From Candidatus Nanoarchaeia archaeon (GTDB lineage: Archaea > Nanobdellota > Nanobdellia > Woesearchaeales > UBA583), in NCBI GenBank assembly GCA_050292425.1, contig JBNKLP010000007.1, forward strand, positions 1 to 58,004: DNA of 58,004 nucleotides. The letters run 5' to 3'. Numbering within the stretch: the stretch's first letter is position 1; the number at the start of each line of letters is the position of its first letter. Made by a program: the position numbers and the translations under genes. The notes beneath the pieces were generated by a model. The model searched no databases, was not told the DNA's origin, and saw only the letters and a program-made list of their open reading frames with translations. Below are positions 11,405 through 53,889 of this stretch, piece by piece.

Positions 11405-11484
11405 TTTTCTACTCCGTACAAAAATGAAGAAATTTTCTCAAAATTTCTTGACAAAATTTCCACTTTGTACAAATTTAGTTTCAT
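11401..11484 (-). CDS. putative 27-aa small ORF containing an inverted repeat
   Basis: MKLNLYKVEILSRNFEKISSFLYGVEK*, GAGGT upstream, stop overlaps the permease start (ATGA). Confidence 0.35.
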   Translation of the reverse strand: MKLNLYKVEILSRNFEKISSFLYGVEK

Positions 11485-11525
11485 CTTTTCTACCTCTTTG
11501 CAAAAATAATTAATTTAATAATTAT

Positions 11526-12764: not shown

Positions 12765-12773
12765 TTTTCTCTT

Positions 12774-32074: not shown

Positions 32075-35000
32075 TTATTCTACCTTTACGTAGATGTATC
32101 TTGTCTGTTTGTCATCTCCATCGTTGATGGATAGTCTTGCAGGATACATTCCTGATTTAGTTCCTGATGCGATGAAGATAGGAACCTGAACTTCTCTTTC
32201 CATGTCTGCACCAATTGAGATTTCCTCATGATAGTTCAATTTCAACTCAGTACTCATAAGAGTAATTGAAATCTCCTTTGCTTCTTCTTCGTTATTCTCA
32301 ATTATAAATGAGATTGTGTTGTATCCTGGAATGATTTCCTGACTTAGAGCAGTGCTCATGTAATTAAGGATATCAGTTCCCTGTCCTCTAATTGATTGAA
32401 TCTTTCTTTGAGCAACTGGATATGAGAACATTACTGATTTTGTTACATCAATGTCTGTTCCATATGCATCTTGTACATTTAGTACAAACCTACAGTTTAC
32501 ATCTGTTGGGATTGTTGATGTGAAATCAAGTGTGTTAATGTCAAACCAGTATACAAATCCTTCTTCTCTTTCAACCTTGGATATAGCTCCATTAGGAATT
32601 GTACCATCATTTGCAAGGTTGATTCTTGCTGTTGCACCATCACAGGAGATTCTTGGTCTAAATTCAAGTACTCTTTCGTTTAGAGTCTCATTCATTACTG
32701 TAATACCAAATCTTACTTCTCCAGGTGTTACAACATCATCCAAAATGATGTCAACCAAGTCAAGTGTTAAATCAACTGTATTGTTTGTATCATTTTGTGA
32801 TACGAATAGTTGTTCTATTGTCTCAGATGCATTTGTTGTTCCATCAGTTGCTGTGAATACAAATACTCCAGTTCCTGTCAAATCATAATTTGTTACTTCA
32901 AATGTTCCAATACAAGGAACAACACTTGAGTTACCATTGATATCCAAAGTACAATCCATTGAAGTTAACAAAGGATGAGTTGCACTGAATTCGAAAGTCA
33001 AATTGTTAGGTACTGTAAAGTCTCCTGTAGCAGTTGACATAATGAAATAATCAATCTGAGGCCCATCAGCTGTTGTTACAACAGTAATTGGAACAAGATT
33101 GGAATTTACAATGTTTGTTCCATCAGTCACTCTTACAAAGGCATTGTAAAAGCCAATAGTGTAATTGTGAGTCAGCCCATCAATGTTTGAACAGTCATCC
33201 TGAGTGCTTTGACCATCACCATAGTAAATTGTACATGTAAGGTTGTCATTTTCAGGATCCTGAGCACTGAACTGAACTGTTGAAGTCAGATTCTCAATTC
33301 CAAATGTTGGTGTCATATTGAATAGAGTTACAACTGGAGCTTCGTTTACTGAAACAAAGTATCTGTCAATGCTTCTTAGTACTTGATGCTCACCATCATC
33401 TGCAATGATTGTGAATCTTGAGTTTCCTGCAATGTTAAAGTTGTCAATATTTTCAACACCATTTGCACAACCTACTGCCTGACTTACTCCATTTACTCTT
33501 AGAGTACATGTCATTGGAAAATTATCAGGATGAGTAACATCCCAAGTTAGTGTCAAGTTTGTTGGAATGTTATTTCCATTTGTTGAGTCAAGTGTGAAAT
33601 ATCCAATGTGAGGTGATGAGTATTCTCTTTCAAATACAAATACTTGTTCAACTACCTGAACTGGCTCGTTGGTACCATCTTCTACAATTAATACAGCATT
33701 GTATGTTCCAACGTTTGAGTATGTGTGTGCTACACCATTCAAATTGCTACATGAATCAGATGTCTGAGTTCCATCTCCAAATGTCAAAGTACAACTTAAA
33801 GAGTCTCCTTCAGCATCTGTTACATCAATTGCAAAGTTAGTTGCAAAAGGAGCATCACCATTATCTGGCTGAGCTTCAAATACATTTACAACTGGTGCTG
33901 TGTTGTCAACAAAGTGAATTGTGATTGAATCCTGAGCTGTAGCTCCAGAAGGATCTTCAACTCTTACCTGAACTACAGCATCATTTGGTGTACTTGTTGA
34001 TACATACAAGTATCCATTTACAATTACTGCATTTGCTGTTCCTGATGTTACTGAACTTGTTAGGCTTAAGGATGTGAACAAGTCATTGAAGTCTGTTACA
34101 TAGTTTGAAAGATCAACTTCAACTGTGTTTAGGTAATATTCAGTTAGTTCAGTAGGCAAGTCAATTAGAGGTGCTACATTATCTGCTGGCAGAGTGATGT
34201 AGATGTCTGAGTTTGATGCAATGTGAACAGTGTTTGAAACTGTTACATAATCAGCCTTTGATACAGTGTATGTGTATGTTCCTGCAATTACATCATTAAA
34301 ACTTACAGTTCCCAATGCGTTTGTTGCAAGGTTCTGATTGTATGAAGGAGCAGTCTGATAGTAATCATCTGCACTTAATAGTTGAAGATTGATGTTTGCA
34401 TTATCTACAACGTTTGAGTCAGAATCTCTTACAAAGAAATTTACTGAATAAGTTTCAGTTGCTAATATCTGCAAGTTTTGTGTCTGCTCAACATCTTCAA
34501 TAATATCACATCCATTGTCAACAGGTGTTGTGATTAATTTAACTTCATATGAACCTGCAGGAAGGTTTGTAATGAAAGGTGATAAATCTGCTCTGTATTC
34601 CTGAAGGTTGAAGTCTGATTGAAGAGTCCAACTCATTACCAACTGATTGTTAAAATACAAGTCTGCATTGAAATTCATAGGAGTGATAGACTCATCCCTG
34701 TATGCTCCTCCTCTAAATCCTCCATAAAGAGTTTCACCTTCTGAGATTTGAGCAATGCTTGTAGTTAGGTCGAATGTTTCTGTATTTGATAGAGTGAAAT
34801 CATATGCTCTTACCCAACATGCTCCATCTAAAGTAGCTGGATAGATTGTCTCAATTACTTCTGCATAGTCTGGAAGTGATGAGGATACCTGATTGTCAAT
34901 TACATCAGTGTCTACTCTGAATTTAATTGATTCATTTTCAAGTCCTGCATCTGGTGTCCATGAAAAAGCAGCAAGTCCTGCGCAAGTGTCAGCTTCAATT

Positions 35001-35701
35001 GGAATTGTTACCATCTCTGTTAGGTAAGTTTCTTGTGTGTTATCATTACTGATTCTTAGTTGAATTTGTGTGTTTGCACTAAAGTCTGAGTAACCTGTTG
35101 GAGGTGTTGCTCTCCACATGCTTGGCTGTGTAAATCTAAAAGCTGAACATACTGTCTCTTCAATTGATACTGGAATTTCAATTTGAACTGGAAGCAGTTC
35201 ATTGTCAATATTCTTAATGTTTAGCTGCTGGATTTCTGCATGTGCATTAGCTTTTTTCTCAAATGAGATTAAAATCGGAGTCTCATCAAAACAGATGTCA
35301 TATTCACATGTAAATCCTGTTGCTCTAAAGTATTCTGGAAGGTATGAATCTTCTGAGGGGAAAAATTCTGCAACATATCCAAATGTTGAAGGGATTTCCT
35401 GTCTTACAATTACTCCTGAGGATGTTGCAATGTTTCCTGATAGAGCGTAACCTGCCATACATGTATTGAATGCCTCTTGAGTTGTTCTATCTGTCCAACA
35501 GGATAGAGCCCCTCTATCATATAGCTGCATATCACCTGCAAGAGATGAACATTGTGAGTTTGAACATTCTCCTCCGTCAACAAACACGTTTGAAGGAGTT
35601 TGAACAGAGTATGCAAAATCGTATACTGTATAAAAATCAGCAGAGTACGCTGTAAATACAGATGCGAAAAGTGCAATTAATAGTATTAATAGTTTTTTCA
35701 T
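32075..35701 (-). CDS. large secreted Ig/PKD-repeat surface protein
   Basis: Signal peptide, acidic/Thr-rich, PKD motifs (LTFGDG..HTYSNVGTYNA; YYGDG..HNY), GTYTYTVSK domain, no C-terminal TM. Confidence 0.75.
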   Translation of the reverse strand: MKKLLILLIALFASVFTAYSADFYTVYDFAYSVQTPSNVFVDGGECSNSQCSSLAGDMQLYDRGALSCWTDRTTQEAFNTCMAGYALSGNIATSSGVIVRQEIPSTFGYVAEFFPSEDSYLPEYFRATGFTCEYDICFDETPILISFEKKANAHAEIQQLNIKNIDNELLPVQIEIPVSIEETVCSAFRFTQPSMWRATPPTGYSDFSANTQIQLRISNDNTQETYLTEMVTIPIEADTCAGLAAFSWTPDAGLENESIKFRVDTDVIDNQVSSSLPDYAEVIETIYPATLDGACWVRAYDFTLSNTETFDLTTSIAQISEGETLYGGFRGGAYRDESITPMNFNADLYFNNQLVMSWTLQSDFNLQEYRADLSPFITNLPAGSYEVKLITTPVDNGCDIIEDVEQTQNLQILATETYSVNFFVRDSDSNVVDNANINLQLLSADDYYQTAPSYNQNLATNALGTVSFNDVIAGTYTYTVSKADYVTVSNTVHIASNSDIYITLPADNVAPLIDLPTELTEYYLNTVEVDLSNYVTDFNDLFTSLSLTSSVTSGTANAVIVNGYLYVSTSTPNDAVVQVRVEDPSGATAQDSITIHFVDNTAPVVNVFEAQPDNGDAPFATNFAIDVTDAEGDSLSCTLTFGDGTQTSDSCSNLNGVAHTYSNVGTYNAVLIVEDGTNEPVQVVEQVFVFEREYSSPHIGYFTLDSTNGNNIPTNLTLTWDVTHPDNFPMTCTLRVNGVSQAVGCANGVENIDNFNIAGNSRFTIIADDGEHQVLRSIDRYFVSVNEAPVVTLFNMTPTFGIENLTSTVQFSAQDPENDNLTCTIYYGDGQSTQDDCSNIDGLTHNYTIGFYNAFVRVTDGTNIVNSNLVPITVVTTADGPQIDYFIMSTATGDFTVPNNLTFEFSATHPLLTSMDCTLDINGNSSVVPCIGTFEVTNYDLTGTGVFVFTATDGTTNASETIEQLFVSQNDTNNTVDLTLDLVDIILDDVVTPGEVRFGITVMNETLNERVLEFRPRISCDGATARINLANDGTIPNGAISKVEREEGFVYWFDINTLDFTSTIPTDVNCRFVLNVQDAYGTDIDVTKSVMFSYPVAQRKIQSIRGQGTDILNYMSTALSQEIIPGYNTISFIIENNEEEAKEISITLMSTELKLNYHEEISIGADMEREVQVPIFIASGTKSGMYPARLSINDGDDKQTRYIYVKVE

Positions 35702-35705
35702 TTTC

Positions 35706-36350
35706 TTATTGTACTAGGCTTCCTCCTGAACCTGTAGTGCTACCTGATCCCCAAGTAGAAGTTGATGAACTTGACTGTGATGTTGCATTGTGAGTAGAAC
35801 TTCCTGAAAGAAGACCAAGTAATATACCTAAGGAAACATATCTTCCTGTTTCTCTTTTAACTCCTGCTGCTGCCCAAGCATTTGCATCAGCTTCTACTTG
35901 TTGACCAGCATATTTAAGTGCTGCATATTTCATATTTGTTTTATGAAATCCATTTTCCATTAATGAATTTTTCACTACATCAGCCTTACAGTAATCATTC
36001 TCACAAAGAGTGTAATCTAATTTTACATTTTCTGGAACTAATTTTTCCAGACCAGTTCTGATATTTGAAATTTTACATACAGTATCTGCATCATTACATG
36101 CTGAATACTTTGAAGCATTTGCAAATGGAATTGAAAAAGTACCTGCCTCATACATCTTAAGAACATCTTCTGGAGAGAACCCTGCAAATGTTGAATTTGT
36201 TGATGTTCTCATCTCAGTTGCTTTTTTAACCATAGTTGTTGCAATAATTGCTGATGAATTCACATCATCCCTTATTTCATATTTTGCAACACATCCAGTC
36301 ATTAAAGCTGGGATTAATGCTGTTGCTAAAGCTTTTGTTCTTTTATTCAT
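35706..36350 (-). CDS. putative lipoprotein
   Basis: MNKRTK..ALIPALMTG|C lipobox; C-terminal hydrophobic SLGILLGLLSG followed by a Ser/Gly/Thr tail. Confidence 0.6.
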   Translation of the reverse strand: MNKRTKALATALIPALMTGCVAKYEIRDDVNSSAIIATTMVKKATEMRTSTNSTFAGFSPEDVLKMYEAGTFSIPFANASKYSACNDADTVCKISNIRTGLEKLVPENVKLDYTLCENDYCKADVVKNSLMENGFHKTNMKYAALKYAGQQVEADANAWAAAGVKRETGRYVSLGILLGLLSGSSTHNATSQSSSSTSTWGSGSTTGSGGSLVQ

Positions 36351-37600
36351 TCTTTAACACCTCCAATACCAAAAAAAGGTTGTGCAACATTTTCACCTGC
36401 TTGCCTGTTTCTTGAAACTTCTTGAGGAATTTCCTTAAGTACACATCTTCCTGCAATAGCAAGATTTCCAGTATTACATTTTTCTACAATTGCATTGTAG
36501 TTTGAACCTAGCAAATCATTTCCAGTTCCTGCTGTAAGCTGGTAAAATCTTGGCTCAACAAGTGGAGCAGGTATAGCTGCTGTCCAATTATTCTGCCAGA
36601 AATCAACATACTTGTTCTTTGCAATCTGTTTTAAAATTTCTGGATTGTTTTTTACATACTCTCTATCAATTGATGATTCAACTGAAAATTGACCTAAATT
36701 TGTCAAATATTCTGCTCTTTGTTCTGGAGTGTTCTGAGCCCCTGAAAGTTCTGTTGCAGAAGTTACTTGTGCATTTAGTAAAAATTCAAGTCCTGTTGTT
36801 AATTCAGGATGAAGTTCATCTAATGCTTCTGGAATGAAAAAAGCTTCTGTTCTTTCTCTTGCACTTAATTTTTCAAGTCCATAAATCTGTCTTGCAACTT
36901 CTTTCTCTGAGAATGTCTCATTGATTTCCTCTCCATTAACACTAAGCAATTTGTAAAGTCCTGAACCCATATTTTCATAAATTGCTAATTTTGCACTATT
37001 ATTAATTAATATAGGAGTTACAAGGTAGTTTCTGAAATCAGCAGGTTTTTTAGATTCAATTGACTTTTCAGCAGCTATTTTTCTATTATCTATAACTACT
37101 ATTCTATCTTGAGGTTTTTCAGGATTGTATACAATTACATCAATGTTATCTCCTTTTTTAGTTGGGTTGAAATTTTTATTTTTAATATTACCAATATTTT
37201 CAATTGGACCTCTATGAACTCTTTCTCCATTTACTAAAATATTTGCTTCAGAATAACTATTACCAACAATTTTCTTAACTAATTCTTCTAATCTATCTCC
37301 TTCATCATCTGATGGATACTTGAACTTGTTTCCAACTTTTCTTGAAGGACACCAGTCTCTCCCCATTACAGTTTCATTAGTTGCAAGTGGTTTACCTTCT
37401 TGAGTGCTAATTCTTACATTATCAGCATATAAACCATTAGGGTATTTTTTACATTTGTCTACTGCAGGCTTTGCAGGAGCAGGTCCAACATATGCAGGTG
37501 ATGCAGGATCATGTCTAGGATCTATAGCATAAGCTGAAGTTGCAAGAAGAGTTCCAGCTAAAATTGTTGCTAAAGCATTAATTGTTTTCATTCTTTCCAA
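36347..37600 (-). CDS. secreted hypothetical protein
   Basis: Signal peptide ending AYA, Pro/Ala linker, Cys pairs; overlaps both neighbours. Confidence 0.6.
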   Translation of the reverse strand: MERMKTINALATILAGTLLATSAYAIDPRHDPASPAYVGPAPAKPAVDKCKKYPNGLYADNVRISTQEGKPLATNETVMGRDWCPSRKVGNKFKYPSDDEGDRLEELVKKIVGNSYSEANILVNGERVHRGPIENIGNIKNKNFNPTKKGDNIDVIVYNPEKPQDRIVVIDNRKIAAEKSIESKKPADFRNYLVTPILINNSAKLAIYENMGSGLYKLLSVNGEEINETFSEKEVARQIYGLEKLSARERTEAFFIPEALDELHPELTTGLEFLLNAQVTSATELSGAQNTPEQRAEYLTNLGQFSVESSIDREYVKNNPEILKQIAKNKYVDFWQNNWTAAIPAPLVEPRFYQLTAGTGNDLLGSNYNAIVEKCNTGNLAIAGRCVLKEIPQEVSRNRQAGENVAQPFFGIGGVKE

Positions 37601-38445
37601 CCCCCTTTCTCCAATACCTGAGTGTGATACCCAGTAATATCTGAATTAGTTGGAAAACAGTTTGGCAATTCAATTTCCATTCTTGCATAAAGAGGAGCAT
37701 TTTCCCTCAGACTTTTTAGTTCACTTTTAGCTGAAAGATCTGATCTAACTTTAAAATAATCTTCTAAAGATAAATTCTGAGTCATACCACTATTGTAGCT
37801 TTTTGGAAATAAACATCTATTTGCATCAATACTCATTCCTTTGTAATTTCCGTCAAGACTTAGATAATTAAAAGTTACAATTTCTTCTCCTTTTTTAGTA
37901 GTTTTTCTATCTACACCAATTGAACCAGTTGCTTCTCTTCCTCCTAATCTTCTTCTTAAATCATCATATGAAGCTTCTCCATTTTTTAATAATAATTTAT
38001 TCAAATCATCTTTGTTTGGAAGAAGAGCTTCAGTTTCATTTGTTCTGTATCTAACATCAGATCCATCTCTTAAAGCACTTCCAGTCTGAACTTCTCCAAA
38101 TCCTCTATGTGGTTCGTCTGCATTGAATCCTCTATTGTATGCAACATATCCTCCAAATCCTCCTAAAAGTAAAAGAGCAGCAGCACCAAGACCACATACA
38201 ATGTTTTTTCTAGTGTGACTTCTTTCTAACTCTTCATTTTCACCCCTAAGTTTAACATTTTCATTTTGATTATTAGAATTTCTTCTGGACATAGATTGAT
38301 ATTCTTTATTTATTTTATTTAAATCCTCAACTTTTTCAGGATTATTTTCTCCAGCTTTTAACTTACCTATTCTCTCTTCAAATTCTGCAAATTCATCCTT
38401 TAAAATTGGTTCGAATCTGTCTTGTTTATGTCTATCTTCAGCCAT
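37588..38445 (-). CDS. single-pass membrane protein with N-terminal coiled coil
   Basis: Charged heptad N-terminus, TM GLGAAALLLLGGFGGYVAY, C-terminal domain with a Cys pair. Confidence 0.6.
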   Translation of the reverse strand: MAEDRHKQDRFEPILKDEFAEFEERIGKLKAGENNPEKVEDLNKINKEYQSMSRRNSNNQNENVKLRGENEELERSHTRKNIVCGLGAAALLLLGGFGGYVAYNRGFNADEPHRGFGEVQTGSALRDGSDVRYRTNETEALLPNKDDLNKLLLKNGEASYDDLRRRLGGREATGSIGVDRKTTKKGEEIVTFNYLSLDGNYKGMSIDANRCLFPKSYNSGMTQNLSLEDYFKVRSDLSAKSELKSLRENAPLYARMEIELPNCFPTNSDITGYHTQVLEKGGWKE

Positions 38446-38534
38446 TTTTTATAATATATTATAGTTTTAATCTATAGTAAACCTCCTATATTTATAAATG
38501 TTTTGATTTGTACACTACTGAAAAGTGAAGAAAA

Positions 38535-39686
38535 TTAAAGAGATTTCTTTGAATTTACAATTTTTTGATAAATATCATCTATTCTCTTTTTATAATTTCG
38601 TGTCTCTCCAATATTTAAATAATTTTGAGGTGTTCCTTTTTTTAAGTTCCTTTCTCCAGCGTTAAATGCCATTCTTGTATAGTCCATCTGAGTTTCAAGA
38701 GGTAAATTTCTATCAACATATTTCTCAAAGATATCTCGGGAATATTGATGTCCTGCAGCAAGATTTTTTTCAGGAATAAATATGTCCTCAGCACTCAAAC
38801 CATATCTTTTACCAGTATCAACAATTATCTGCATCAATCCTCCTGCTCCAGCTGAAGATTTAACATAAGGATTTCCTTGTGATTCCGTTGCAACTTGCGC
38901 TAAATCAGATTCAAAAAGATATTTTCCTTCTTCAGTATAACCATTATCAATTAAAAAATTATTTCCATTTGTTACTATCTCCAAATATCTTAAACAACTA
39001 TTTCCTGAACATTCTAACTCATTTAATCTTCCTACTGTTCTTCTAAGTCTGCTTGCATTATCTGAATCATCATTTTCTAAGATCAAATATTGATATTTTT
39101 GAGGAAGTCTTGCTTTTAGCAAAGCGATTTGATCTTGAGGAGACAAATATTTCTTATTTTTCATTAAACCTAAAAATGAAACTGAAGATAATCTATCTGG
39201 CAATTCTCTTTTATTTGTTGTTTTGGAAACTTTACCAACAGCTGACTGAGTTCTTGCTTTATTCAATTGTATTGTTAAAGTTGTAATTTGTTTTTCAAGT
39301 TCTGATATTTGACTTTCAGTAAATTCAAGTTCTTCCGAAATTAAATTATTTTCGTGATATAAATCCTCATTTACTTGTTGAGCTTCGTTTGCTCTTATAG
39401 TTTGAACTGCCAAATCAGTTTTATCTTTCCATTGAATAACTGAGGCTCCAAGAATAATTGTTGCTGCAGTTGCCAAATATGCATTACTAGGTATTCTAGT
39501 AAGTAATTGAGGAATTGAAATAACTCCTATCCCTAGTTTTCCTAAAAGAGTATTATTGACACCAAAAGTTCTTCTAACTTCAGATTTTCTTTCTCTTTCT
39601 TTTATAAATTCATCAATTCTATAATTAACATAAAGACTATATAAATCAAATTTTTCTTTGGCAAAATTAACTAATGGATTATTCAT
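38535..39686 (-). CDS. membrane-anchored lytic transglycosylase (SLT/GH23 domain)
   Basis: Catalytic ES (ATESQGNP), SSAGAGGLMQI, PEKNLAAG..Y, AFNAG, ETRNY; N-terminal TM and coiled-coil stalk. Confidence 0.88.
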   Translation of the reverse strand: MNNPLVNFAKEKFDLYSLYVNYRIDEFIKERERKSEVRRTFGVNNTLLGKLGIGVISIPQLLTRIPSNAYLATAATIILGASVIQWKDKTDLAVQTIRANEAQQVNEDLYHENNLISEELEFTESQISELEKQITTLTIQLNKARTQSAVGKVSKTTNKRELPDRLSSVSFLGLMKNKKYLSPQDQIALLKARLPQKYQYLILENDDSDNASRLRRTVGRLNELECSGNSCLRYLEIVTNGNNFLIDNGYTEEGKYLFESDLAQVATESQGNPYVKSSAGAGGLMQIIVDTGKRYGLSAEDIFIPEKNLAAGHQYSRDIFEKYVDRNLPLETQMDYTRMAFNAGERNLKKGTPQNYLNIGETRNYKKRIDDIYQKIVNSKKSL

Positions 39687-39755
39687 ACTTATTAATTAGT
39701 ATTATTTGATTATTTATAAAAATTACTAAATTTGTTTATTTTAGTAGTAACAAAA

Positions 39756-40859
39756 TCAAGCATTGTATTGATTGAAATAATTGTTTAATTCACCATATAC
39801 TAAACCATTCCATTCCTCAGGTTTTTTTCCATTAACAGAATTAATTAATTGAGGGATAAATTGATTAAATCCTGTGGAATTAGCAAGAATAGAATTTATT
39901 TTTGTTGTAAAAATAGCATCATTAGAATTAATCTTATTCATAATAAAACCAAAAATAATCTGTATAAAATAATTCTCAATATTTGTATCGGCTTGTGTTC
40001 TTCCTCTACCCATTCTTATCAACATTCTATAATAATAATCATTTACTGAATTTGCAATTAAATTTCTGATTCTTTGCTCAAGTTCTGAATTTGAAAGTTG
40101 AGACTGCTGAGAAGTTGGTTGTTGTGGATTTTGAACACCATTTTTTTCTTTAATTAAAAAGTAACTATTGAAATACTTCTGAGCCTCTGTTGTTCCAGAT
40201 AAATTATATTTTTTAAAATAATTTAAAGATAACTCTAAAAAAATTCTAAGTTCAGGAAACTCTTTTTGTACATTTCCATCAGGAGTTTTTTGAATCACAA
40301 TTGCATCAGTCTTAATATCTTTAGAATTTTCTTGCATAATCGTTAATATATCATTAATAATATCTAACTCCTTATTCCAAGTTTCTAATTCACCCTTCAT
40401 TTTTTGATTCATCTCAACTTTTACTTGCTCAGAATCAAAATCTCTTGATGAATTTACTATAGTAGAAAGTTGAGCATCATATGTATTGTGCTTTATTTTC
40501 ATATAAGTACTAAGTTCATCTTTTAGATTTTTAGGTAAAGTTTTATCTTTGATTTCTTTTTCTAATTTATCTATATTTACTGCTAATTCATCTTGATTCT
40601 TGTATTCATACTCTAAATCCATTGCAACTTTTGAGATTGATTTTTGTTTTAATTGAGATATTAAACCACTTCTTACTTGTTCTTTTTGAACATCAAGAGG
40701 AGTATTTATATCTTCATTACAAAGAGTTATGATTTGTGAGCAAAGTTGTTGAATTGCAAGGGCTTCTGTCTCAGTATTTGCTTTTTTAGAAACTTCAATT
40801 AATTTAGTTGCAAATTGAATAATTTGACTATTATAGGCTTTTATTTGTTCAGAGTTCAT
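39756..40859 (-). CDS. hypothetical alpha-helical protein
   Basis: Gln/Asn-rich helical ORF, ATGA overlap with the upstream membrane protein. Confidence 0.6.
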   Translation of the reverse strand: MNSEQIKAYNSQIIQFATKLIEVSKKANTETEALAIQQLCSQIITLCNEDINTPLDVQKEQVRSGLISQLKQKSISKVAMDLEYEYKNQDELAVNIDKLEKEIKDKTLPKNLKDELSTYMKIKHNTYDAQLSTIVNSSRDFDSEQVKVEMNQKMKGELETWNKELDIINDILTIMQENSKDIKTDAIVIQKTPDGNVQKEFPELRIFLELSLNYFKKYNLSGTTEAQKYFNSYFLIKEKNGVQNPQQPTSQQSQLSNSELEQRIRNLIANSVNDYYYRMLIRMGRGRTQADTNIENYFIQIIFGFIMNKINSNDAIFTTKINSILANSTGFNQFIPQLINSVNGKKPEEWNGLVYGELNNYFNQYNA

Positions 40860-41641
40860 TTTGCCTTCTCCTCTCTTAATTTAGTGTAAATACTCGTAAT
40901 ACTATCAGCTAGTTGCTCTTGTGCTTTTTTAAATTCATTATTTTCTTTTTTTGCAGTCCTTCTCTTTTTCAAACTATTTAGTACTGAACCATCTGTATTC
41001 TGCATATCACTTACTTTTTTACCTGCTTTAAATCCAACAATAAACAGAATTAGTCCTGTTATTATTCCAAGTATTCCAAATGAAACAACCCAATTTAATA
41101 TTGCAAAAATTGCAGAATTTTCATCAAAAATACTAGACCCATTTTCAATAAAAGTTATAAGAGTTGTACCTACAAAAAAAGATGCCAAACTCATAAAAAG
41201 AAGCCAAGTAGGCTTTCTGAATCTTCTTCCATCTTCTCCAACTAATAGAGCATCTAGTCCTTTTAATCCTCCAAATAAAACTATGGCAATTAAAAAAAAA
41301 CCAATTGTACCTCCAAACGTAACAATTAATTGATCAATACCATCTTTTGAATACATATAGAAAATTCCTGAAGTCCCTATGAAAGAAATTGCAAATGACA
41401 TAACATTTCTTTCTTTTGTATTATTTCTAAATACAAATCTAAGACCTACTTTAACCAATGCATTGAATCCAAGAAGCATTGCAATAAACATTAATGATGC
41501 AACAGTAAAGTTGTTAGACAATAATCCATAAACACCACTATCTCCTAGCAAATCAGTAAAAGGTTTCTTGAAATCAGCTGCAAAAGTTGTCTGCAAAGAT
41601 GTTAGAATGATTGCAAAAGGTAATAATAGTCTTTTTAACAT
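40856..41641 (-). CDS. polytopic membrane protein (paralogue of 45471-46379)
   Basis: Signal-like N-terminus, about 5 TM helices, LMFIA / IGTSGIFYMY / FGGTIGFFLI, basic helical tail. Confidence 0.7.
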   Translation of the reverse strand: MLKRLLLPFAIILTSLQTTFAADFKKPFTDLLGDSGVYGLLSNNFTVASLMFIAMLLGFNALVKVGLRFVFRNNTKERNVMSFAISFIGTSGIFYMYSKDGIDQLIVTFGGTIGFFLIAIVLFGGLKGLDALLVGEDGRRFRKPTWLLFMSLASFFVGTTLITFIENGSSIFDENSAIFAILNWVVSFGILGIITGLILFIVGFKAGKKVSDMQNTDGSVLNSLKKRRTAKKENNEFKKAQEQLADSITSIYTKLREEKAK

Positions 41642-41693
41642 AAATTTCTGTTATAAATTGAATTTATAAATTTTTGTGGTTGCTGAGCAGGAG

Positions 41694-43754
41694 TTATTTA
41701 CGTTCAGGAGGAAAAGAACCAGATCTAATCTCAAATCCTCTTTCAGTTAAGAAACTGCTCTCATTACCAGCAATAGATTTTGATGAACTATCATCATTTA
41801 AATTTTCACTTAAACTATCAATAGTTCTCATTAAAGAAGTTAATTTATTTATATCAAAATTACTAAACTCATAATGATTTTTATTTAATGTCATTATCTC
41901 AGAGAATATGTTTGAAATTAAAGTAAATTTTCCTTTTATTTGAGAATAATTGTTATCATCTAAATTTTCATTCAACCATTTAATAAATTTTAGAGAACCT
42001 TTTATTAAACTAATACTTTGTAGAGAAAAAGGGTTATGATTTGGATCCCTTTCTATTAATGCTTTCCAATTTTTTAAGAAAGTAACTAATTTAGAATATC
42101 TTTTTGGAACCTTATTTTTATTATCAAATAAATTCTGAAAAATTTTTCCTACTCCTTGTTTTGTAGATGGTTTTGTTGGATCTAGAGCAAGTTCAATTTC
42201 ATGCAAGTGTTTTCTAAAAGTATTTTCTAATTTTTCAATTTCATATTTTAGTTCTTCCACACCAATAAAATTGCCACTAGAAATTCCTTTTAAATTACTT
42301 TTTGCCCTTTCAAGTTCATCCTCCAATCTAACTATTGCCTCTTTTCCAAAATATTTTTTGAATTCCTGAAAGTCACCTTTCCAATTTAAATTAATTGATT
42401 GAACATAAGTTTCTGAAATGCCAGTAATAGAAGCCACATTAATCTTGTCTTTACAAATGTTTGCCAAATCCTCAATTTGATCAGAATTAAATTTTTGCAG
42501 ACTTTCTTTATTAACAAATAAAATTTTATTATTTACATATTCCCATACTTGTTTACATCTCTCAAAGTTAGGCAGTCCAAGATAAATTTTTTGAAGTCTA
42601 CCATCTCTTGTCAGTGCATCATCAAATTCACTTTTCTCAAGATTGGTAGCAAGACAAACAATTATCCCCGGATATCTAGAACGATTAATGAAACTTTTCA
42701 TAGCTTCAACTCCTTGCGCTCTCCATCCTGAATCACCTCCAGAACCTGAAGTTTTTTTTAATAAATCTGTTGCTTCATCTATGTAAACAAAACAAGGAAC
42801 TCTATACCTTTTCACCAAACTGATTGCTGGACCAAAAATCTTTTTAGAAACATTTGTTGCAAGACCTCCAACATATTGATTTGAAAGCATATCCCCAATT
42901 TCCTGAAAATGAGTTTTAAATCCTAATTCATTATATATTTCCATAAGAGATGCCTGTATAAGATGAGTTTTACCTGTTCCAGGTGGTCCATACAGAACAA
43001 TTCCATTTTGTGAAGGCTGTTTTCCATTTAAATAATCTTTAATACAAGAATAAATCTCTAATAAATCTCTAGTATTAGTTGAACCATTTTTAAAATCTTC
43101 TTTCAAAAACATCTTATCTAATAATTCTTCTATAATTTTTCTTTTTTCATTAGAAATTTTAGGAATATTTAGAGTAATATTACTTATATCATCAAGAGAT
43201 AAAATGTCTTCCTCTTCTGGATTTAAATAGCCTCTTTGATTCGAAGTTGGTAAAATCAATGTAGGACTAATTCTTTCATCCACATAAAGAATAGAAAAAT
43301 TAAGTTTCTCACTAGTTTTCTTATTATCTCTTCTTGCATCCCTAATTTCTTCAATTGTGATCTTTGAATTTATTTTATTATAACTTGAAAATGCATAATA
43401 CATTATCTTTTCTAAAATCGGATGGGTTATTTTTGCTTGCTGCGGATTTTGTTCATCTGGTATTTGTCGGAATAAAGAATTATCTAGATAAAGAGTATAA
43501 AAATCAGCAACTTTTCCCTTCACTTTTTGTATTGGAATTTGAAAAGTGTCATTACTAATTAAAGAAACGATTGCGTCTAAATGAATAAATATTCTCCAAC
43601 CAACAATTTCTTTTTCATTATATCTCAATGATTCAATTTTTGGCTCTATTTTGAAGGTTCCTGATCCTAAAGCCATATAATACACAGGACTTAAACCTGT
43701 TTTTTCATTAACTGGCACTTCTTTTAAAGAAGAAGTTTCAGGATAACCCTCCAT
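41694..43754 (-). CDS. classical-clade AAA+ ATPase with unique N- and C-terminal domains
   Basis: GIVLYGPPGTGKT, pore loop QYVG, VYIDEA, sensor-1 LATN, SRH FDDALTRDGRL. Confidence 0.88.
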   Translation of the reverse strand: MEGYPETSSLKEVPVNEKTGLSPVYYMALGSGTFKIEPKIESLRYNEKEIVGWRIFIHLDAIVSLISNDTFQIPIQKVKGKVADFYTLYLDNSLFRQIPDEQNPQQAKITHPILEKIMYYAFSSYNKINSKITIEEIRDARRDNKKTSEKLNFSILYVDERISPTLILPTSNQRGYLNPEEEDILSLDDISNITLNIPKISNEKRKIIEELLDKMFLKEDFKNGSTNTRDLLEIYSCIKDYLNGKQPSQNGIVLYGPPGTGKTHLIQASLMEIYNELGFKTHFQEIGDMLSNQYVGGLATNVSKKIFGPAISLVKRYRVPCFVYIDEATDLLKKTSGSGGDSGWRAQGVEAMKSFINRSRYPGIIVCLATNLEKSEFDDALTRDGRLQKIYLGLPNFERCKQVWEYVNNKILFVNKESLQKFNSDQIEDLANICKDKINVASITGISETYVQSINLNWKGDFQEFKKYFGKEAIVRLEDELERAKSNLKGISSGNFIGVEELKYEIEKLENTFRKHLHEIELALDPTKPSTKQGVGKIFQNLFDNKNKVPKRYSKLVTFLKNWKALIERDPNHNPFSLQSISLIKGSLKFIKWLNENLDDNNYSQIKGKFTLISNIFSEIMTLNKNHYEFSNFDINKLTSLMRTIDSLSENLNDDSSSKSIAGNESSFLTERGFEIRSGSFPPERK

Positions 43755-43759
43755 TTTTA

Positions 43760-45469
43760 TTAGATATTAAATATTTGTTTCAAACTCGATAAAAATTCTT
43801 CATATCTTGAAAAATTCTCTGCAGAAATTGAAGGAGTTGAAGAGACTTTTGCAAATGAGATTACATCTTCAGCAAGTTTTTGTATATTTGCATTAATTTC
43901 ATTGAATTTCTTTGCATTTCTTGCCTTTGCAACTAATTTTCTAAAACTATCGTAATCATGTTCTGATTTATTAAATAAAAGAAGATAAAGGTTTGACATT
44001 AAATTAGAAGCCCTATCAAAATTATGAGTCTGAATTTCTGCTCCAATTTGAATTATTAATGACTTTATATTTTTTTTAATTTCATCAATATCTTTTATTG
44101 AACTTGAAGAACTCTCTTCTTCCTCGAAATTCTTGAACAATGATTTATTATCTTTCATTATTGATTTAAATTTATCATTATTTTCCCAAGGTTCTTCTCC
44201 TTCAAGAGCATCTTCAATTTCTCTAATTAAGTATTTAGCTAAAGATTTGTTGTCCTCATTCTCAAAGAATTTTTTATCCAATTGTGAAATTTTTATACTC
44301 TCTCCATCATCTTTAACAAGCTCAACATTTTTGAATCCTCCAGAACCAATTCTAAAATGATATTTTTTATTAATTGTAGACTGTAATTCCTGGGCTAATT
44401 TATCAAAGCCTTCTTTTAATTCGCTCAGCCCACTATCAACTTTTGTAATTTTCGAAGCTAATTCCTTAATTTCCTTCTCATTTCCATCTTTATCTTTGAA
44501 TCTGACTCCTGTAAATAATTCTGTTAATACTCTTTTGAGGAATTCGTCTAAATTATTATTTTCATTTGCATCTGAATATGATTTACCTGAACCATAATTG
44601 TTGCTCTCCCAGTTTAGTTTTTCCAAAAATTTATTTAGTTCTGCTAAGAGAGCTTTTCCTCTTCCTGCATTACCATAAAAAAAATGATTTAAGAATTTTT
44701 TGAAGCCTAGTTTGAAATCATTAAATCCTCCTAAATTGTAAGAATAAGTCTTTTTATATGTTGAAAAATCCACATTCATTGCTGCTTGAACCAAACCATC
44801 TGACCAATCCTGAATTACTCCTTCTGATTGTCTAATGTAATTGTCTAAATATTTAAGTCCTGAGACTAAAGATGTGAATACCGTTTCTTTGTTTGCAGTT
44901 TCCTGAATTAAATAATAAATTTGAGCATAGTATTGAGCAAAATAGTTTGCAGAGTTAATAAAGTGAGATTTATTAGCAGTATTTATATTATCTTCAATAC
45001 CCAATGCACTCTGCTGTAATTTTACTATTTCTGGCGCACTTGCTTGAATCGAGGCCCTTAATGAGTATTCCTTGCTGTTGTATTCAAGGCAAAGCTGTTC
45101 AAATTGTTTTAAAGCATGAATCTCTTCAGTGTGAATTGTTTTGAAAAAATCAGTAGTTTTCTTTTGTTCTTCATCAAGATGTTCAACCAACTTTTGTAAA
45201 TCTTCAATCAAAGGAGTAATGGAAGTTCTTAGTCTTTGATAAACATCCCTCAAATCTTTTGAAAATTTCTCCTGTCCAAAAGAGAACATTTTATTTTTTA
45301 ATTCAATAGCACTTACTCCATCTTTTTCATTTAATGCTTTAAGATAATCATGAGCAGATTGAAAAAAAGCTCTTTCTTTTCTATTTTCAGAAATATATTT
45401 TTGAAACATCTCAGCAAGTTGTTTTAGTTTCATACCAGAACCTGTTTCATTTCCAATTTCAATTGTCAT
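43760..45469 (-). CDS. hypothetical coiled-coil/helical protein
   Basis: Long helical ORF; ATG 45469 lies 1 nt after the upstream stop and is preceded by GGAGGGGG. Confidence 0.65.
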   Translation of the reverse strand: MTIEIGNETGSGMKLKQLAEMFQKYISENRKERAFFQSAHDYLKALNEKDGVSAIELKNKMFSFGQEKFSKDLRDVYQRLRTSITPLIEDLQKLVEHLDEEQKKTTDFFKTIHTEEIHALKQFEQLCLEYNSKEYSLRASIQASAPEIVKLQQSALGIEDNINTANKSHFINSANYFAQYYAQIYYLIQETANKETVFTSLVSGLKYLDNYIRQSEGVIQDWSDGLVQAAMNVDFSTYKKTYSYNLGGFNDFKLGFKKFLNHFFYGNAGRGKALLAELNKFLEKLNWESNNYGSGKSYSDANENNNLDEFLKRVLTELFTGVRFKDKDGNEKEIKELASKITKVDSGLSELKEGFDKLAQELQSTINKKYHFRIGSGGFKNVELVKDDGESIKISQLDKKFFENEDNKSLAKYLIREIEDALEGEEPWENNDKFKSIMKDNKSLFKNFEEEESSSSSIKDIDEIKKNIKSLIIQIGAEIQTHNFDRASNLMSNLYLLLFNKSEHDYDSFRKLVAKARNAKKFNEINANIQKLAEDVISFAKVSSTPSISAENFSRYEEFLSSLKQIFNI

Positions 45470-45470
45470 T

Positions 45471-46379
45471 TTAATTACCCCCTCCATTAATTATTTTTTG
45501 CATATCTTTCAAGATTTTCACTTTATCGTCTGCTGCTTCATTTGCCTCTTTTAAGGAGTTGACAAAATTCTTGACATAACTTTTTATTTGAGAGATATTG
45601 TTGTCAGATTCTTCATCCTCTTTTGTATAATCAGATTCTTCCTCTTTTTCCTCCTTATTTTTCTTCATCTTCTTGATGATTCCCCAGATTCCAAAACCAA
45701 TAGCAATTACTATAACATATGGGATTAAATATGCAAAGAAATTGTAAACTTTTGCATAAAGCCAAGTTCCTTGCTGTGAATTACAACTAATTGAATCCAC
45801 CCAAGCATCAGGGTCTGGAATAGAATGACAATTTAAACCTCCAAGAACAGTTCCTGTATACCCAATCATTAAATATGAAGAAACAAGAACTCCCAAAACA
45901 ACTAAAAAAACCCACATAGGTCCTTTACCAAAAATACCTGTCTCATCTTTAGAACTTTCAGCAAAGTTGTACATGAACTTCATAACAAATACTACAAAGA
46001 AGAGAATCAGAAAATAACCAACTCCTCCTCCAAAGATGTAAATGAAAGTGTCTGGATGACTTCTGTACATAAAGAAAATTCCCAAAGTACCAATTACTGA
46101 GAGCATCATAGAAATTACAGTAATGGGCTTTCGAGTGAATCCTGAATGAGATTTGAATGCAAGTTTTAGAAGAGATTGAAACATTGAAAATGTTCCCATA
46201 AATGTTGCAATGAACATTAAGGCAAATACCACATCTGCATTTTCAAGAAGAGAAGTTATTCCTGCACCAACTTCTTTAAGCCCTCTTAGAACAGGACCAT
46301 CTGCTCCATAAGCACCAGTTAAAAACAAGAAAAAACTGGAAAGCAACAATCCCAGCTTTAGTCTAAATGCATTTTTCAT
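45471..46379 (-). CDS. polytopic membrane protein (paralogue of 40856-41641)
   Basis: Signal-like N-terminus, LMFIA / IGTLGIFFMY / FGGGVGYFLI, charged helical tail. Confidence 0.7.
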   Translation of the reverse strand: MKNAFRLKLGLLLSSFFLFLTGAYGADGPVLRGLKEVGAGITSLLENADVVFALMFIATFMGTFSMFQSLLKLAFKSHSGFTRKPITVISMMLSVIGTLGIFFMYRSHPDTFIYIFGGGVGYFLILFFVVFVMKFMYNFAESSKDETGIFGKGPMWVFLVVLGVLVSSYLMIGYTGTVLGGLNCHSIPDPDAWVDSISCNSQQGTWLYAKVYNFFAYLIPYVIVIAIGFGIWGIIKKMKKNKEEKEEESDYTKEDEESDNNISQIKSYVKNFVNSLKEANEAADDKVKILKDMQKIINGGGN

Positions 46380-46437: not shown

Positions 46438-48393
46438 TTACTGTTTCCCGAACAATTTGTCAATCATCTCAATGTAGGTTGCAGTTGACCACATCTGAGC
46501 CATGCAGCCTTGAGCTTTTTGAGCTGATACTGAGGAAATTTCTGAGCCAAATCCAACTGTTCCTAAGGTCAGAATATCTTTTGTTGAAGAGGATAATATT
46601 TTTGCAATGTCCCTACGATATTTTTTCTCATTCAAATCATTCATGGCAATTGCTGCAACATTATTTATCCAGTACCAACTATCACCATTGTGATAAGAGG
46701 CATTATTTTCTCCTGTGTAGTTTGGTTGAAATGCAGAATCCTTATTACTTAGTGATGCAATTCCTCCCCAAGTAGTTCTTAAGTGCATTAGTGTAACATC
46801 AAAGATTTTTTCCCAATCTTCTGATAGAAACAAGTCAGGATAAGTATAGTAAGTCAAGAAAACATTACTATCAACTCTGTCTCTAAATGCTTCTGCATAG
46901 AGTGTACCATTTCTAAAATAAGTCTGCCTGATTTTCTTTCTAAGAAGATTTTCCAAATCTAGGAATCTTTTTGCATCTTCAACTTTCCCAAGCATGGCAG
47001 CAAGAGTTGCAAGAGTTGATGTGAATTCTAGAAACTGAGCCTGAATGTCAAGAGGGAATTGAACTTCAATTGTGTCCATCCAAGAATCTCCATTTTTTAC
47101 TTTAACTAATTCGTTTTCAAAATCCCAAGATGTTTTAATTATCTTGTTGAAAGAAAAATTAAATTTGTCATATATTTGCTCAATCTCTTTTTTGGAAAAA
47201 GTCTTTTCAAGTTTGTGCTGTTTGTCAAGAGAGAATATGAAATCAGCAAATCTTTTTGCAAGCCAGAATATTCCATCAAAACTAAGCCAAGAACCTTCTA
47301 CATTTAGCCTTTTCAATTGACCTGTTTCTTCATCAATGCTATTAAGATGAGCAATTATTCTCTCTTTTACAAGCGAATCTTCCCCAAGATTTATTAGAGA
47401 TCTTAATCCAACCAACTCATCCCTTGCCCAAACTTGAGAAAACCAAGGATATCCTGCAAACAAACCCTTGCTTTTCTTACTCATAACATCCCTACTCAAG
47501 AATTTGTAGATTCCAAGAACAGACATTTTGTATGCAGTGTCAATATCCTGAGGCATTGGTTTTGAAAAATTGTCAATATCATCAAGCAAATCAGTTGAAA
47601 CAGTTTTATCAAAGCCTTCAAGTTCATCTTTGTGTGTTTCAAGGAGAGCTATTTGAGTTGCCACATCTTCTTTGGAAAATCCCGAGCCCATAAAAAGAAT
47701 TTTTGATTCCTTTACAGAAATAGACATAAGTCTGTAAACATATCTTTTGTGAAGAGAGTTTCTTTGTTTTGAATATTCATATTCTTTTTTAACCCACTCT
47801 TTTTTCAAATTATATAAAAAGTTTGAAGCTTTGATTCCAAACCATAATTTGTAATTATCATTATCTCCTGAATTTTTAGTGAACTCAACAAAAAGGATGC
47901 CATTTTCTTTGAATACATTGTAATCTCTTCCCCACTCATCAAAGTCATTCAACTCCTTGCAATCAAGATCAATGTCTAACTCACTATCAAAGTTCTTAAT
48001 CTCATAAACTACTCCTCCAGCAGGACCTAAGTAGAAAGTATCAGTTGTTTTTATTTTTTGTTCAATATGATCTGAGTTACCATGTTCATCAATTGTATAG
48101 GAAACATTTTCTGAGAATTTACTTGCAAATTTTCTTGATGCCTTGTAGGAGTAAAAATCAATTTCATCAACTTCCATTTCTTTTGGTAATATTTCGTCAA
48201 GTATTTTGAAAACTTTTAGTGAATCCTGATTTATTACATTCCATCCTTGAAATTTGGATGTATTTTTGTTTAATCCAAGATTTACAAAATCTCCTTTATT
48301 ATTACTTAGCAAGAAATTAAGATTTTCAATCTCCTTAGGATCTACTTGGTCAAAGGAATAAGATTGATTAGGAAGATGGTAGTTTATTTTCAT
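46438..48393 (-). CDS. amylo-alpha-1,6-glucosidase (glycogen debranching enzyme, GDE_C)
   Basis: AGYPWFSQVWARD, SWMDT, YHNGDSWYW, QMWS. Confidence 0.85.
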   Translation of the reverse strand: MKINYHLPNQSYSFDQVDPKEIENLNFLLSNNKGDFVNLGLNKNTSKFQGWNVINQDSLKVFKILDEILPKEMEVDEIDFYSYKASRKFASKFSENVSYTIDEHGNSDHIEQKIKTTDTFYLGPAGGVVYEIKNFDSELDIDLDCKELNDFDEWGRDYNVFKENGILFVEFTKNSGDNDNYKLWFGIKASNFLYNLKKEWVKKEYEYSKQRNSLHKRYVYRLMSISVKESKILFMGSGFSKEDVATQIALLETHKDELEGFDKTVSTDLLDDIDNFSKPMPQDIDTAYKMSVLGIYKFLSRDVMSKKSKGLFAGYPWFSQVWARDELVGLRSLINLGEDSLVKERIIAHLNSIDEETGQLKRLNVEGSWLSFDGIFWLAKRFADFIFSLDKQHKLEKTFSKKEIEQIYDKFNFSFNKIIKTSWDFENELVKVKNGDSWMDTIEVQFPLDIQAQFLEFTSTLATLAAMLGKVEDAKRFLDLENLLRKKIRQTYFRNGTLYAEAFRDRVDSNVFLTYYTYPDLFLSEDWEKIFDVTLMHLRTTWGGIASLSNKDSAFQPNYTGENNASYHNGDSWYWINNVAAIAMNDLNEKKYRRDIAKILSSSTKDILTLGTVGFGSEISSVSAQKAQGCMAQMWSTATYIEMIDKLFGKQ

Positions 48394-48478
48394 AAGATGA
48401 AATGAGATGTGATATTTTAAAACATATATTCTTAATTTAAAAGTGAAGAACTAAGACTCAAGAATATAAGAGAAAAAA

Positions 48479-50101: not shown

Positions 50102-50223
50102 TTATTAAGATTTTTGCTTAAAAATAAATTAAGATTTATTAATTTATTTGAGGAGTCATTGTGAGTTTTAATTTAATAGTAAAAACTAAAATAATTAAAC
50201 TAAAAAAATTGGCTTTTGAGTAG

Positions 50224-53286: not shown

Positions 53287-53889
53287 TTAATTAAAATTAT
53301 TTTTGTTTTTATTATGTACTTTCTTCACATAAAACATAATTCCCAAAATAATTGTTATGGTCAGCATAAAACTAATCACAATCAGCAAAGTAGGTAGAGA
53401 GCCTGAGTCCTTAACACTCTGGGCAAACTCGCCAACATCCTCACTAACAGTGGTATCAATTAAATCAAGCTCCTTAAGCTCGTCATACGAGTTCTGGTCA
53501 ATCTCTTCCAAATTGTAATAATACTTGCCATCAACCTCATCACTTAGTCTGGCCAAATATTCAGTCTGAGTTGCATCATCAACCACAATGAAACTCTCAT
53601 CTTCAGCTTTTTCGTCTAAGTAAATCATCTCATTGTAGTTGTCTTCAAAGGAAGTTCTGTAGAATCGTTTGCCTACTTTTTCAAGAAAAACTTTCTTGGC
53701 ATTCAGGAATAAGTTCTGAATCTCATCATTTTGAGGAGAACAACTCCTTTTCTGAATCTCTTTTGCATGACAGTTATTAAGATCAACTTTGGTTCTGCTT
53801 TGAGAGTAATCAGTACAATCAGTCCATAAACTGAATTCATAGCTTGGCTCACATACTGGTGGTTTGTAAGTAGAACTTCCTCCACCACC
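53287..53889 (-). repeat. dispersed repeat, copy 2 (shared C-terminal anchor cassette)
   Basis: Homologous to 14101-14700, e.g. YLDEKAEDESFIVVDD..EYLARLSDEVDGKYYY is present in both. Confidence 0.85.

Follow-up and report, generated by a model that had tools for sequence, protein, structure and literature searches.

Lytic transglycosylases of the SLT (GH23) type are already known from DPANN archaea: a murein-like family (fam00969) has been described in Woesearchaeota and Pacearchaeota (PMC8204110, Castelle et al. 2021; PMC9723730, Vigneron et al. 2022), and the proposed role of these proteins, in the available parts of the papers, is to bind and cut bacterial walls (PMC8204110, PMC9723730, PMC10936187, PMC11537232). 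Archaeal peptidoglycan hydrolases have also been shown able to kill bacteria, according to the portion of PMC12352652 available. Here we analysed a stretch of 58,004 nucleotides from a Candidatus Nanoarchaeia archaeon of the order Woesearchaeales (GenBank assembly GCA_050292425.1, contig JBNKLP010000007.1; hereafter the window), in which ten minus-strand genes (g01–g10; Table 1) encode an SLT protein (g06), a classical AAA ATPase (g03), a giant PKD protein (g10) and several further membrane or secreted proteins. The original prediction, made from the window alone, had taken these genes for one uncharacterised ATP-driven apparatus that attaches to and opens a bacterial cell wall. Comparison with related genomes pointed to a different explanation, in which we place about even confidence, namely that the locus is a composite of separable parts and not one conserved machine; one of these parts is a three-gene unit (the trio) of a membrane protein (TM-A, g01), a helical protein (HEL, g02) and the ATPase.

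As in fam00969, g06 is an SLT domain in a DPANN archaeon without its own peptidoglycan machinery, and its reading as a surface enzyme directed at bacterial peptidoglycan agrees with the published proposals for Woesearchaeota and Pacearchaeota, as far as the available parts of those papers go. Whereas fam00969 proteins are described there as large (up to 3000 aa) and extracellular, g06 is a 383-aa protein whose N-terminal part contains a hydrophobic anchor region, with a coiled-coil-like stalk behind it. The accessible portions of the published SLT papers mention no link to an AAA module, and the terms ‘AAA’, ‘PKD’, ‘operon’ and ‘gene cluster’ occur 0 times in the accessible text of PMC9723730. 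The best matches of g06 were phage tail lytic transglycosylases (PHROG 2013 ‘lytic tail protein’; gp41, PDB 9b45), in the SLT domain only; unlike in phages, no other phage-like gene was present at the locus. The combination of an SLT protein, polytopic membrane proteins and an ATPase in one cluster resembles type IV secretion or conjugation systems with a VirB1-type SLT protein; however, Pfam and NCBIfam revealed no VirB4, VirD4 or VirB11-type ATPase, and the parts are not kept together in relatives. The statement of the original prediction that no VirB4, VirB11, FtsK or PilB homologue is present, and hence no named secretion system, held for the ten proteins in the same two databases.

The core of g03 resembles Cdc48/p97 D2, Vps4/CdvC and PAN in its Walker A and B motifs, aromatic pore loop and arginines of the second region of homology (SRH), but unlike these proteins g03 has a single AAA domain and flanks without known domains, and is always paired with TM-A and HEL. 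FtsH, Msp1/ATAD1 and Bcs1 are membrane-held classical AAA rings that act on membrane or exported proteins, and the likeness of the trio to them lies in the proposed working principle. The trio differs in that a separate five-helix protein, together with a helical adaptor, would do the anchoring; it appears to have neither a protease domain nor a Bcs1 N-domain, and any sequence link to these proteins would be limited to the AAA core. We rate the locus as belonging to known kinds of system, membrane-associated AAA modules and DPANN surface-gene islands.

Comparison of 20 genomes of the genus, including the source genome (G000), by means of profiles for TM-A (A1) and HEL (A2) revealed that the trio is a conserved, uncharacterised ATPase module, bearing out its proposal as a unit. 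The two profiles matched the identical 14 of the 20 genomes; HEL lay directly downstream of TM-A on the same strand in 14/14, and a gene of the AAA family directly followed the pair in 11 of these 14. The module is single-copy in G000, where g03 is the sole copy of its subfamily, g02 overlaps g01 by 17 nt and g03 follows g02 after 5 nt, whereas G012 carries two TM-A/HEL pairs. TM-A/HEL remained unmatched in 6/20 genomes (G006, G007, G008, G009, G015 and G018), which are 82–95% complete, so that a missing match is not proof of absence. In G005, G014 and G019 the next gene after the trio encodes a TatD nuclease and the neighbourhood lacks envelope genes; in G004 the trio stood in yet another context. 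As a separate observation, G007 contains a shorter variant (L026:7534-15789) that consists of a small hydrophobic open reading frame (ORF) of 144 aa, a 253-aa ORF and a 439-aa AAA protein and is located ~1 kb downstream of a gene for an STT3/AglB-type oligosaccharyltransferase (1033 aa); this neighbourhood hints at envelope glycoprotein biogenesis. The trio appears undescribed so far: no description was found in full-text searches of the literature, although the supplementary tables of PMC8204110 (module 98), which lie outside the text covered, may list these families.

The ATPase g03 contains a single classical AAA+ domain (core ~245–470; PF00004, 8e-14, 52.6 bits vs the gathering cut-off of 21.2) flanked by family-specific regions (1–235 and 470–686). 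Classical AAA cores are recognised by Walker A, Walker B, aromatic pore loop 1 and SRH arginine motifs; these read GPPGTGKT, IDE, QYVGG and TRDGR in g03 and were largely kept in seven homologues. The best matches in the Protein Data Bank (PDB) were Cdc48/p97 D2 and Vps4/CdvC, in the AAA core only, and g03 fell far short of every NCBIfam equivalog cut-off; the best, again confined to the AAA core, was CdvC (NF041006, 2.6e-15, 56.2 bits vs 650). CdvC and Vps4 are expected to carry an N-terminal MIT domain, and Pfam detected no MIT family in g03. HEL, a predicted cytoplasmic protein, was modelled by AlphaFold2 (AF2) as all helix with very long helices (pLDDT 61.6). ESM Atlas gave no usable match for HEL or for the N-domain of the ATPase (best score 0.76), and the HEL profile found, among the matches listed in a word-based protein search, one weak match besides the query.

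TM-A has a signal-like N-terminus, five transmembrane (TM) helices, an extracellular loop with two cysteines and a cytoplasmic C-terminal helix (259–299), as judged from hydropathy and an AF2 model (pLDDT 72.3, from a 13-row alignment); the predicted topology would place the N-terminus outside and the C-terminal helix in the cytoplasm. TM-A and HEL had no match in profile searches of Pfam, NCBIfam, PHROG, PADLOC and PDB, and Foldseek searches of the PDB with the two models gave none at E≤0.001. The best Z of a VIA wide search with TM-A was 9.1, to helical hairpins, which is below the noise of this tool for helical proteins (~13). In an exhaustive search of 1.84 billion proteins, the TM-A profile matched 224 cluster representatives at E≤0.001 (107 at 1e-10 and 49 at 1e-30), mostly of 240–330 aa and matched end to end. 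Among 401 genomes sampled evenly across the phylum, TM-A was matched over its full length solely in this genus; outside it the profile matched only the first ~160 positions (about 5–160), in proteins of 270–2355 aa. A scan of genome contigs with a closer TM-A alignment (A3) yielded five loci, each counted once and all in genomes of the genus, and a scan of metagenome contigs yielded four, three of them <4 kb.

Some of the TM-A-like N-terminal regions outside the genus adjoin large PKD, Ig or papain-like peptidase surface proteins. Two loci from other families of the order (L063:2702-14848 and L066:1-15028) each contain two or three proteins with such N-terminal regions, interleaved with very large surface proteins (2355 aa with CarboxypepD_reg and SdrD_B; 854 aa with a papain-like peptidase and PKD; 1038 aa with a weak C39-like match). 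No neighbour of the HEL or AAA family was found at eight loci outside the genus with TM-A-like N-terminal regions. Since the coverage is limited to positions ~5–160 and may be partly compositional, these matches serve as a lead only.

Complex prediction of TM-A with HEL, from 10- and 13-row alignments and with three controls, gave a score of 0.60 (runs 0.62, 0.54 and 0.60), compared with 0.00 for the best control; the runs agreed in at least 74% of contacts, and partner pLDDT was at least 66. In the calibration of this score, 58 of 80 solved complexes and 2 of 110 mismatched pairs reached the mark. The prediction lends weak support to TM-A/HEL binding, the prior for which was fairly high already because of strict adjacency and co-occurrence, and lifts this prior a little. 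The modelling of TM protein and helical partner that had been suggested as a check thus separated the pair from its controls, but is weak by the tool’s own calibration.

The fourth gene, g04 (TM-A'), encodes a protein with four or more TM helices by hydropathy and is paralogous to g01 (BLASTP 2e-14, 24% over 241 residues); its orthologues hold the same position in four other genomes (loci L020, L021, L022 and L085). The helical-looking g05 next to it showed no detectable relationship to HEL (hhalign probability 0.1% against the g02 profile) or to the proteins in position 5 of four relatives (0.1% against profile A4), which have 343–392 aa and are mutually related. Duplicated membrane modules had been proposed; the paralogy of g01 and g04 supports this for the membrane proteins, and the helical proteins g02 and g05 have no demonstrable kinship.

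Beyond the trio, the order GDE, TM-A, HEL, AAA position, TM-A', four to six unmatched ORFs, g10, NFACT and HisRS was kept in G000, G002, G011, G012 and G017, and in G001 without TM-A'; the contigs of G003, G010 and G016 end too early to judge. The interval before g10 accepts insertions, because in G001 a collagen-triple-helix-repeat protein and a DDE transposase are located just upstream of the g10 homologue (L025:15135-17190). The parts of this arrangement had separate distributions, so the single apparatus of ten genes was not borne out: the SLT gene stands within the cluster in G000 only, g05–g09 lack detectable homologues in the related loci, the trio occurs without surface genes in three genomes, and the PKD protein occurs without the trio in four. 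The synteny and co-occurrence check across relatives, which the original prediction had named as able to refute it, was failed by half of the parts, among them the SLT gene, the cassette between TM-A' and g10 and the PKD gene.

The SLT domain of g06 is clear (PF01464, 1e-12, 48.2 bits vs the gathering cut-off of 21.3, residues 265–352). GH23 enzymes carry a Glu-Ser motif followed by GLMQ and AYNAG-like motifs, and g06 contains E268 in TES (267–269), GLMQ (283–286) and AFNAG (340–344); from these motifs, it is likely active as a lytic transglycosylase. A basic N-terminus and a hydrophobic region (47–84) precede the stalk and the C-terminal SLT domain; the two hydrophobic segments (47–65 and 65–84) lie at a Kyte–Doolittle (KD) value of ~1.3, which leaves the topology ambiguous. 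Its best profile matches were the PHROG lytic tail protein (4e-17) and the tape measure protein gp41 (PDB 9b45, 0.0015), with endolysins also matched. A word-based search of 5.8 billion proteins found three weak relatives of similar length; a further word-based search with the g06 SLT domain gave no case among longer proteins, which is weak evidence.

PBP transpeptidase and SEDS polymerase (FtsW/RodA) were not found in the 90%-complete G000, in line with the earlier remark that DPANN archaea have no peptidoglycan; among the three peptidoglycan-synthesis families searched, there was one Mur-ligase-type match, of a kind also seen in archaeal control genomes. g06 is therefore without an obvious substrate of its own and most plausibly acts on foreign peptidoglycan. 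PF01464 occurred in 14/20 genomes of the genus at 29 places, with up to three per genome, and inside a TM-A…g10 cluster in G000 alone; Pfam detected no SLT domain in 26 ORFs from six related loci or in nine ORFs from a further locus. Of seven SLT places that were fetched together with an SLT pair of G011, six had the motif in an ORF with a hydrophobic N-terminus. These ORFs sit amid unrelated genes with none of the window’s cluster proteins nearby, and just one was detectably similar to g06 (2.7e-06, SLT domain only). G000 also holds two further SLT-like ORFs, C31:1951-3489 (512 aa, twin-arginine-like N-terminus) and C4:63873-64892 (339 aa, N-terminal TM segment).

The remaining genes between TM-A' and g10 formed a variable cassette. 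By hydropathy, g07 has a charged N-terminal part, a TM helix (82–100) and a C-terminal domain of ~185 aa, and g08 and g09 each begin with a hydrophobic stretch, which is moderate evidence of membrane or secreted status; g09 is a putative lipoprotein with a ..LMTGC lipobox-like motif; towards its C-terminus it has another hydrophobic stretch, and its tail is rich in Ser, Thr and Gly. Neither tblastn nor phmmer matched g05–g09 in the corresponding loci of relatives, and g08 had no match in 60 related genomes at E≤0.001. By contrast with this failure to match, the corresponding positions in relatives hold ORFs of similar architecture, which we weigh below. The last gene, g10, encodes a very acidic protein (D+E 13.4%, K+R 4%) with 20 Cys, an N-terminal signal-like segment, PKD domains (PKD_4, 4e-11, 43.2 bits vs 27; PKD, 31.7 vs 23.5) and CarboxypepD_reg-like Ig-fold domains. 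Its homologues were found in 15/20 genomes, including the trio-less G008, G009, G015 and G018, and 20 kb around the homologue in G009 and G013 (loci L088 and L089) contained no trio member.

Under the composite explanation, the TM-A/HEL/AAA module would be a lineage-restricted, membrane-tethered classical AAA unfoldase. HEL would attach to the cytoplasmic tail of TM-A and, by way of one of the family-specific ends of the ATPase (N- or C-terminal), hold the AAA ring in place; on the inner side of the membrane the ring would then act on a protein substrate by threading or remodelling it. The likeliest job of such a module would be envelope-protein handling (export assistance, extraction or turnover), because the trio is directly upstream of envelope genes in six genomes. 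The duplicated TM-A' with its own, unrelated partner would form a second part. A third would be the cassette of anchored or secreted proteins, which is species-specific, changes rapidly and includes the SLT protein in G000 alone; g06 probably works alone at the cell surface, where it would cut the bacterial peptidoglycan of host, prey or dead cells. The giant Ig-fold (PKD) surface protein, present genus-wide, would be a fourth part, inherited independently of the rest. What the data show directly is which genes are present, their domains, the motor and catalytic motifs, the paralogy and the patterns of synteny and co-occurrence; for topology, TM-A/HEL binding, substrate and all functions, we infer from motifs, predicted topology and neighbourhood. 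A stronger version, to which we assign a low probability, is that the trio is a lineage-specific membrane machine of Woesearchaeales that exports or arms a swappable host-contact cassette; the SLT protein of G000 would then be one bacterial-wall ‘cartridge’, and the locus would determine, in modular fashion, the host range of an archaeon that lives as an episymbiont on bacteria.

Several observations weigh against this explanation, either in its picture of the trio or in its separation of the parts. In G017 the third-position gene (444 aa; L071:12318-13652 and L085:11893-13227, which share the same ORF layout and are counted once) lacks the AAA core and retains weak similarity to the N- and C-terminal regions of the family, with TM-A and HEL intact; the third-position protein of G014 (672 aa) had no AAA match, and in G013 the TM-A/HEL pair is followed by opposite-strand genes and no AAA gene. 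The ATPase is hence not indispensable to the pair. At scores of 0.60 or less, the mark of the complex prediction was reached by just seven of the 80 solved complexes and by both of the passing mismatches. The TM-A and HEL models are of moderate confidence (pLDDT 72 and 62) and match no fold, and function is predicted only. The collinear, tightly spaced, one-strand arrangement in five to six genomes could reflect real functional coupling in that sub-clade, and the 20 genomes are kin, not independent samples. G011 contains two SLT ORFs (771 and 420 aa, the latter with a lipobox-like GGC) ~2.7 kb past its g10 homologue, inserted between HisRS and aIF2-gamma (L075:8161-11748), which are direct neighbours in the window; given this pair, there may be some linkage of SLT genes to the neighbourhood. 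SLT genes lay within 10 kb of 2/6 extended clusters, where the rough chance is ~9% per genome (about three SLT genes per 1.2 Mb), and this slight excess among kin is not convincing. Despite the lack of significant sequence similarity, the cassette positions of relatives hold ORFs of similar architecture (soluble, 343–392 aa; one or two single-pass; secreted, 436–521 aa; small lipobox-type, 187–232 aa), which speaks for a conserved cassette design. Because the closest genome is ~50% identical in conserved proteins, replacement and very fast divergence are inseparable here, and the term ‘hypervariable cassette’ covers both.

The apparatus of the original prediction, in which the PKD protein attaches to a bacterial host, the SLT enzyme opens its wall, TM-A serves as platform and the ATPase as motor, draws on ten co-oriented, tightly spaced genes, on the recurrence of gene order and protein architectures in five to six genomes, on intact SLT motifs in a genome where PBP transpeptidase and FtsW/RodA were not found, on the SLT genes close to the cluster of G011, and on the bacterial hosts proposed, in the parts of the papers available, for SLT-bearing Woesearchaeota (PMC8204110, PMC9723730). 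We consider it unlikely: just 1/6 extended clusters includes an SLT gene, three genomes have the trio without envelope genes and four have the PKD protein without the trio, and the ten genes encode no VirB4, VirD4, PilB or FtsK-type ATPase, secretin or pilin-like part detectable by Pfam or NCBIfam. To our knowledge, a classical AAA unfoldase is also not the motor of any trans-envelope injection system, which counts against such an apparatus. A comparably small chance is left to a conflict or defence module, in which the ATPase and a helical sensor would control TM-A as a membrane-perturbing effector in the style of abortive infection, with the surface genes incidental. The patchy occurrence of the trio (14/20), its varied contexts, second copy in G012 and fast divergence, the decay of the ATPase in some genomes and a weak PADLOC match of the AAA core to IetA (5.7e-07) would fit such a role; however, the IetA/IteA matches reflect the generic AAA core (NF042959, 24.8 bits vs the cut-off of 510), TM-A and HEL matched no PADLOC model, no model for a partner (IetS/IteS) was matched, and no nuclease, protease or other effector domain was found. 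The conserved chromosomal site between housekeeping genes in six genomes, with no obvious defence island, argues in the same direction.

That the trio remodels membranes like ESCRT-III/Vps4 or SNARE/NSF, with HEL assembling on TM-A and the ATPase disassembling it in division, vesicles or host bridges, is suggested by CdvC as the best NCBIfam match of the AAA core (2.6e-15), by Vps4/CdvC among the PDB matches, by the very long helices of HEL and by the amphipathic-looking cytoplasmic helix at the end of TM-A. We regard this as highly unlikely, as the CdvC score was 56 bits vs a cut-off of 650, none of the ten genes encodes an MIT domain or a Snf7 or PspA family by Pfam and NCBIfam, and the HEL model had no significant fold match; an essential role in division is unlikely because the module was not found in 6/20 genomes of the genus. 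The SLT domain’s best matches to phage lytic tail proteins, endolysins and a tape-measure protein, together with the DDE transposase within the G001 version of the locus, raised the possibility that an integrated virus or plasmid once introduced a phage-type lytic transglycosylase here and that the region is what remains of it. We rejected this provirus or mobile-element origin as extremely improbable: no capsid, terminase, integrase or replication genes are among the ten, the window contains no tRNA, flanks and gene order are kept across the genus, and the GC content is not distinct.

All ten minus-strand ORFs of the original prediction were found at their coordinates, and the features assigned to them largely held. 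The four proposed sub-operons agree with the measured gaps from g01 to g10 (-17, 5 / 52 / -4 / 69 / 89 / -13, -4, 4 nt), and the AAA, SLT and PKD domain calls were upheld by Pfam in g03, g06 and g10. Seven membrane or secreted proteins had been counted; a custom hydropathy script, by which this status was judged, gave clear evidence in g01, g04, g07 and g10 and moderate evidence in g06, g08 and g09. No Pfam family exceeded its curated cut-offs in g01, g02, g04, g05, g07, g08 or g09, and NCBIfam, PHROGs and PADLOC returned nothing for the ten proteins beyond generic AAA-core and SLT-domain matches.

Table 1 Genes of the ten-gene locus (positions are those of the window).
Gene	Designation	Position	Strand	Length (aa)	Remarks
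g01	TM-A	45471-46379	minus	302	first gene of trio
g02	HEL	43760-45487	minus	575	second gene of trio
g03	AAA+ ATPase	41694-43754	minus	686	third gene of trio; PF00004
g04	TM-A'	40856-41641	minus	261	g01 paralogue
g05		39756-40859	minus	367	soluble, helical-looking; overlaps g04 by 4 nt
g06	SLT/GH23-type lytic transglycosylase	38535-39686	minus	383	PF01464
g07		37588-38445	minus	285	single-pass membrane protein; species-specific
g08		36347-37600	minus	417	signal-peptide-like N-terminus; species-specific orphan
g09		35706-36350	minus	214	small protein, lipobox-like N-terminus
g10		32075-35701	minus	1208	secreted PKD surface protein

The source assembly comprises 1.23 Mb in 133 contigs (31% GC, 90% complete), of which the window is contig C7. 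The window encodes TBP, aIF2-gamma, XPD and a Rad50-like ATPase; TBP, aIF2-gamma and XPD identify the source as an archaeon, in line with the DPANN-type archaeon assumed in the original prediction. The locus was likewise found in its predicted place between housekeeping and metabolic genes: the upstream side carries genes for a GDE-type glucosidase and a glycogen synthase, the downstream side those for NFACT, HisRS and aIF2-gamma. The directly upstream glycogen set (46438-51504, both strands) includes the GDE_C glucosidase, a eukaryote-type glycogen synthase (PF05693, 5e-100) and a GT4/GT5 glycosyltransferase. Elsewhere in the window are two further giant proteins, of 1533 aa (53287-57888, right-handed beta-helix and DUF4215) and 1107 aa (14101-17424, MopE-type metal-binding motif), and a MacB/FtsX-type ABC transporter set with a CARDB protein (9027-13487).

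For strain variation, contigs of three DNA runs were compared with the window: those from the likely source sample covered it identically, and a second sample contained a copy at low depth. The likely source sample also yielded minor contigs that differ by many substitutions across 32108-32783, the 3' end of g10, which suggests that a strain with a divergent C-terminal part of this protein co-occurs there. An apparent joint from 32651 to 45157 was disregarded, as one side consisted of 20 letters only.

The contact with and exploitation of other cells by Woesearchaeota and other DPANN archaea are little understood, which gives the locus its relevance, and we know of no member with a bacterial partner in culture. 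If the trio handles envelope proteins, it would represent a new coupling of a classical AAA motor to the archaeal membrane. Otherwise, the locus still exemplifies a hypervariable surface-protein cassette set in a conserved frame, and such a cassette is a likely place for host-specificity genes.

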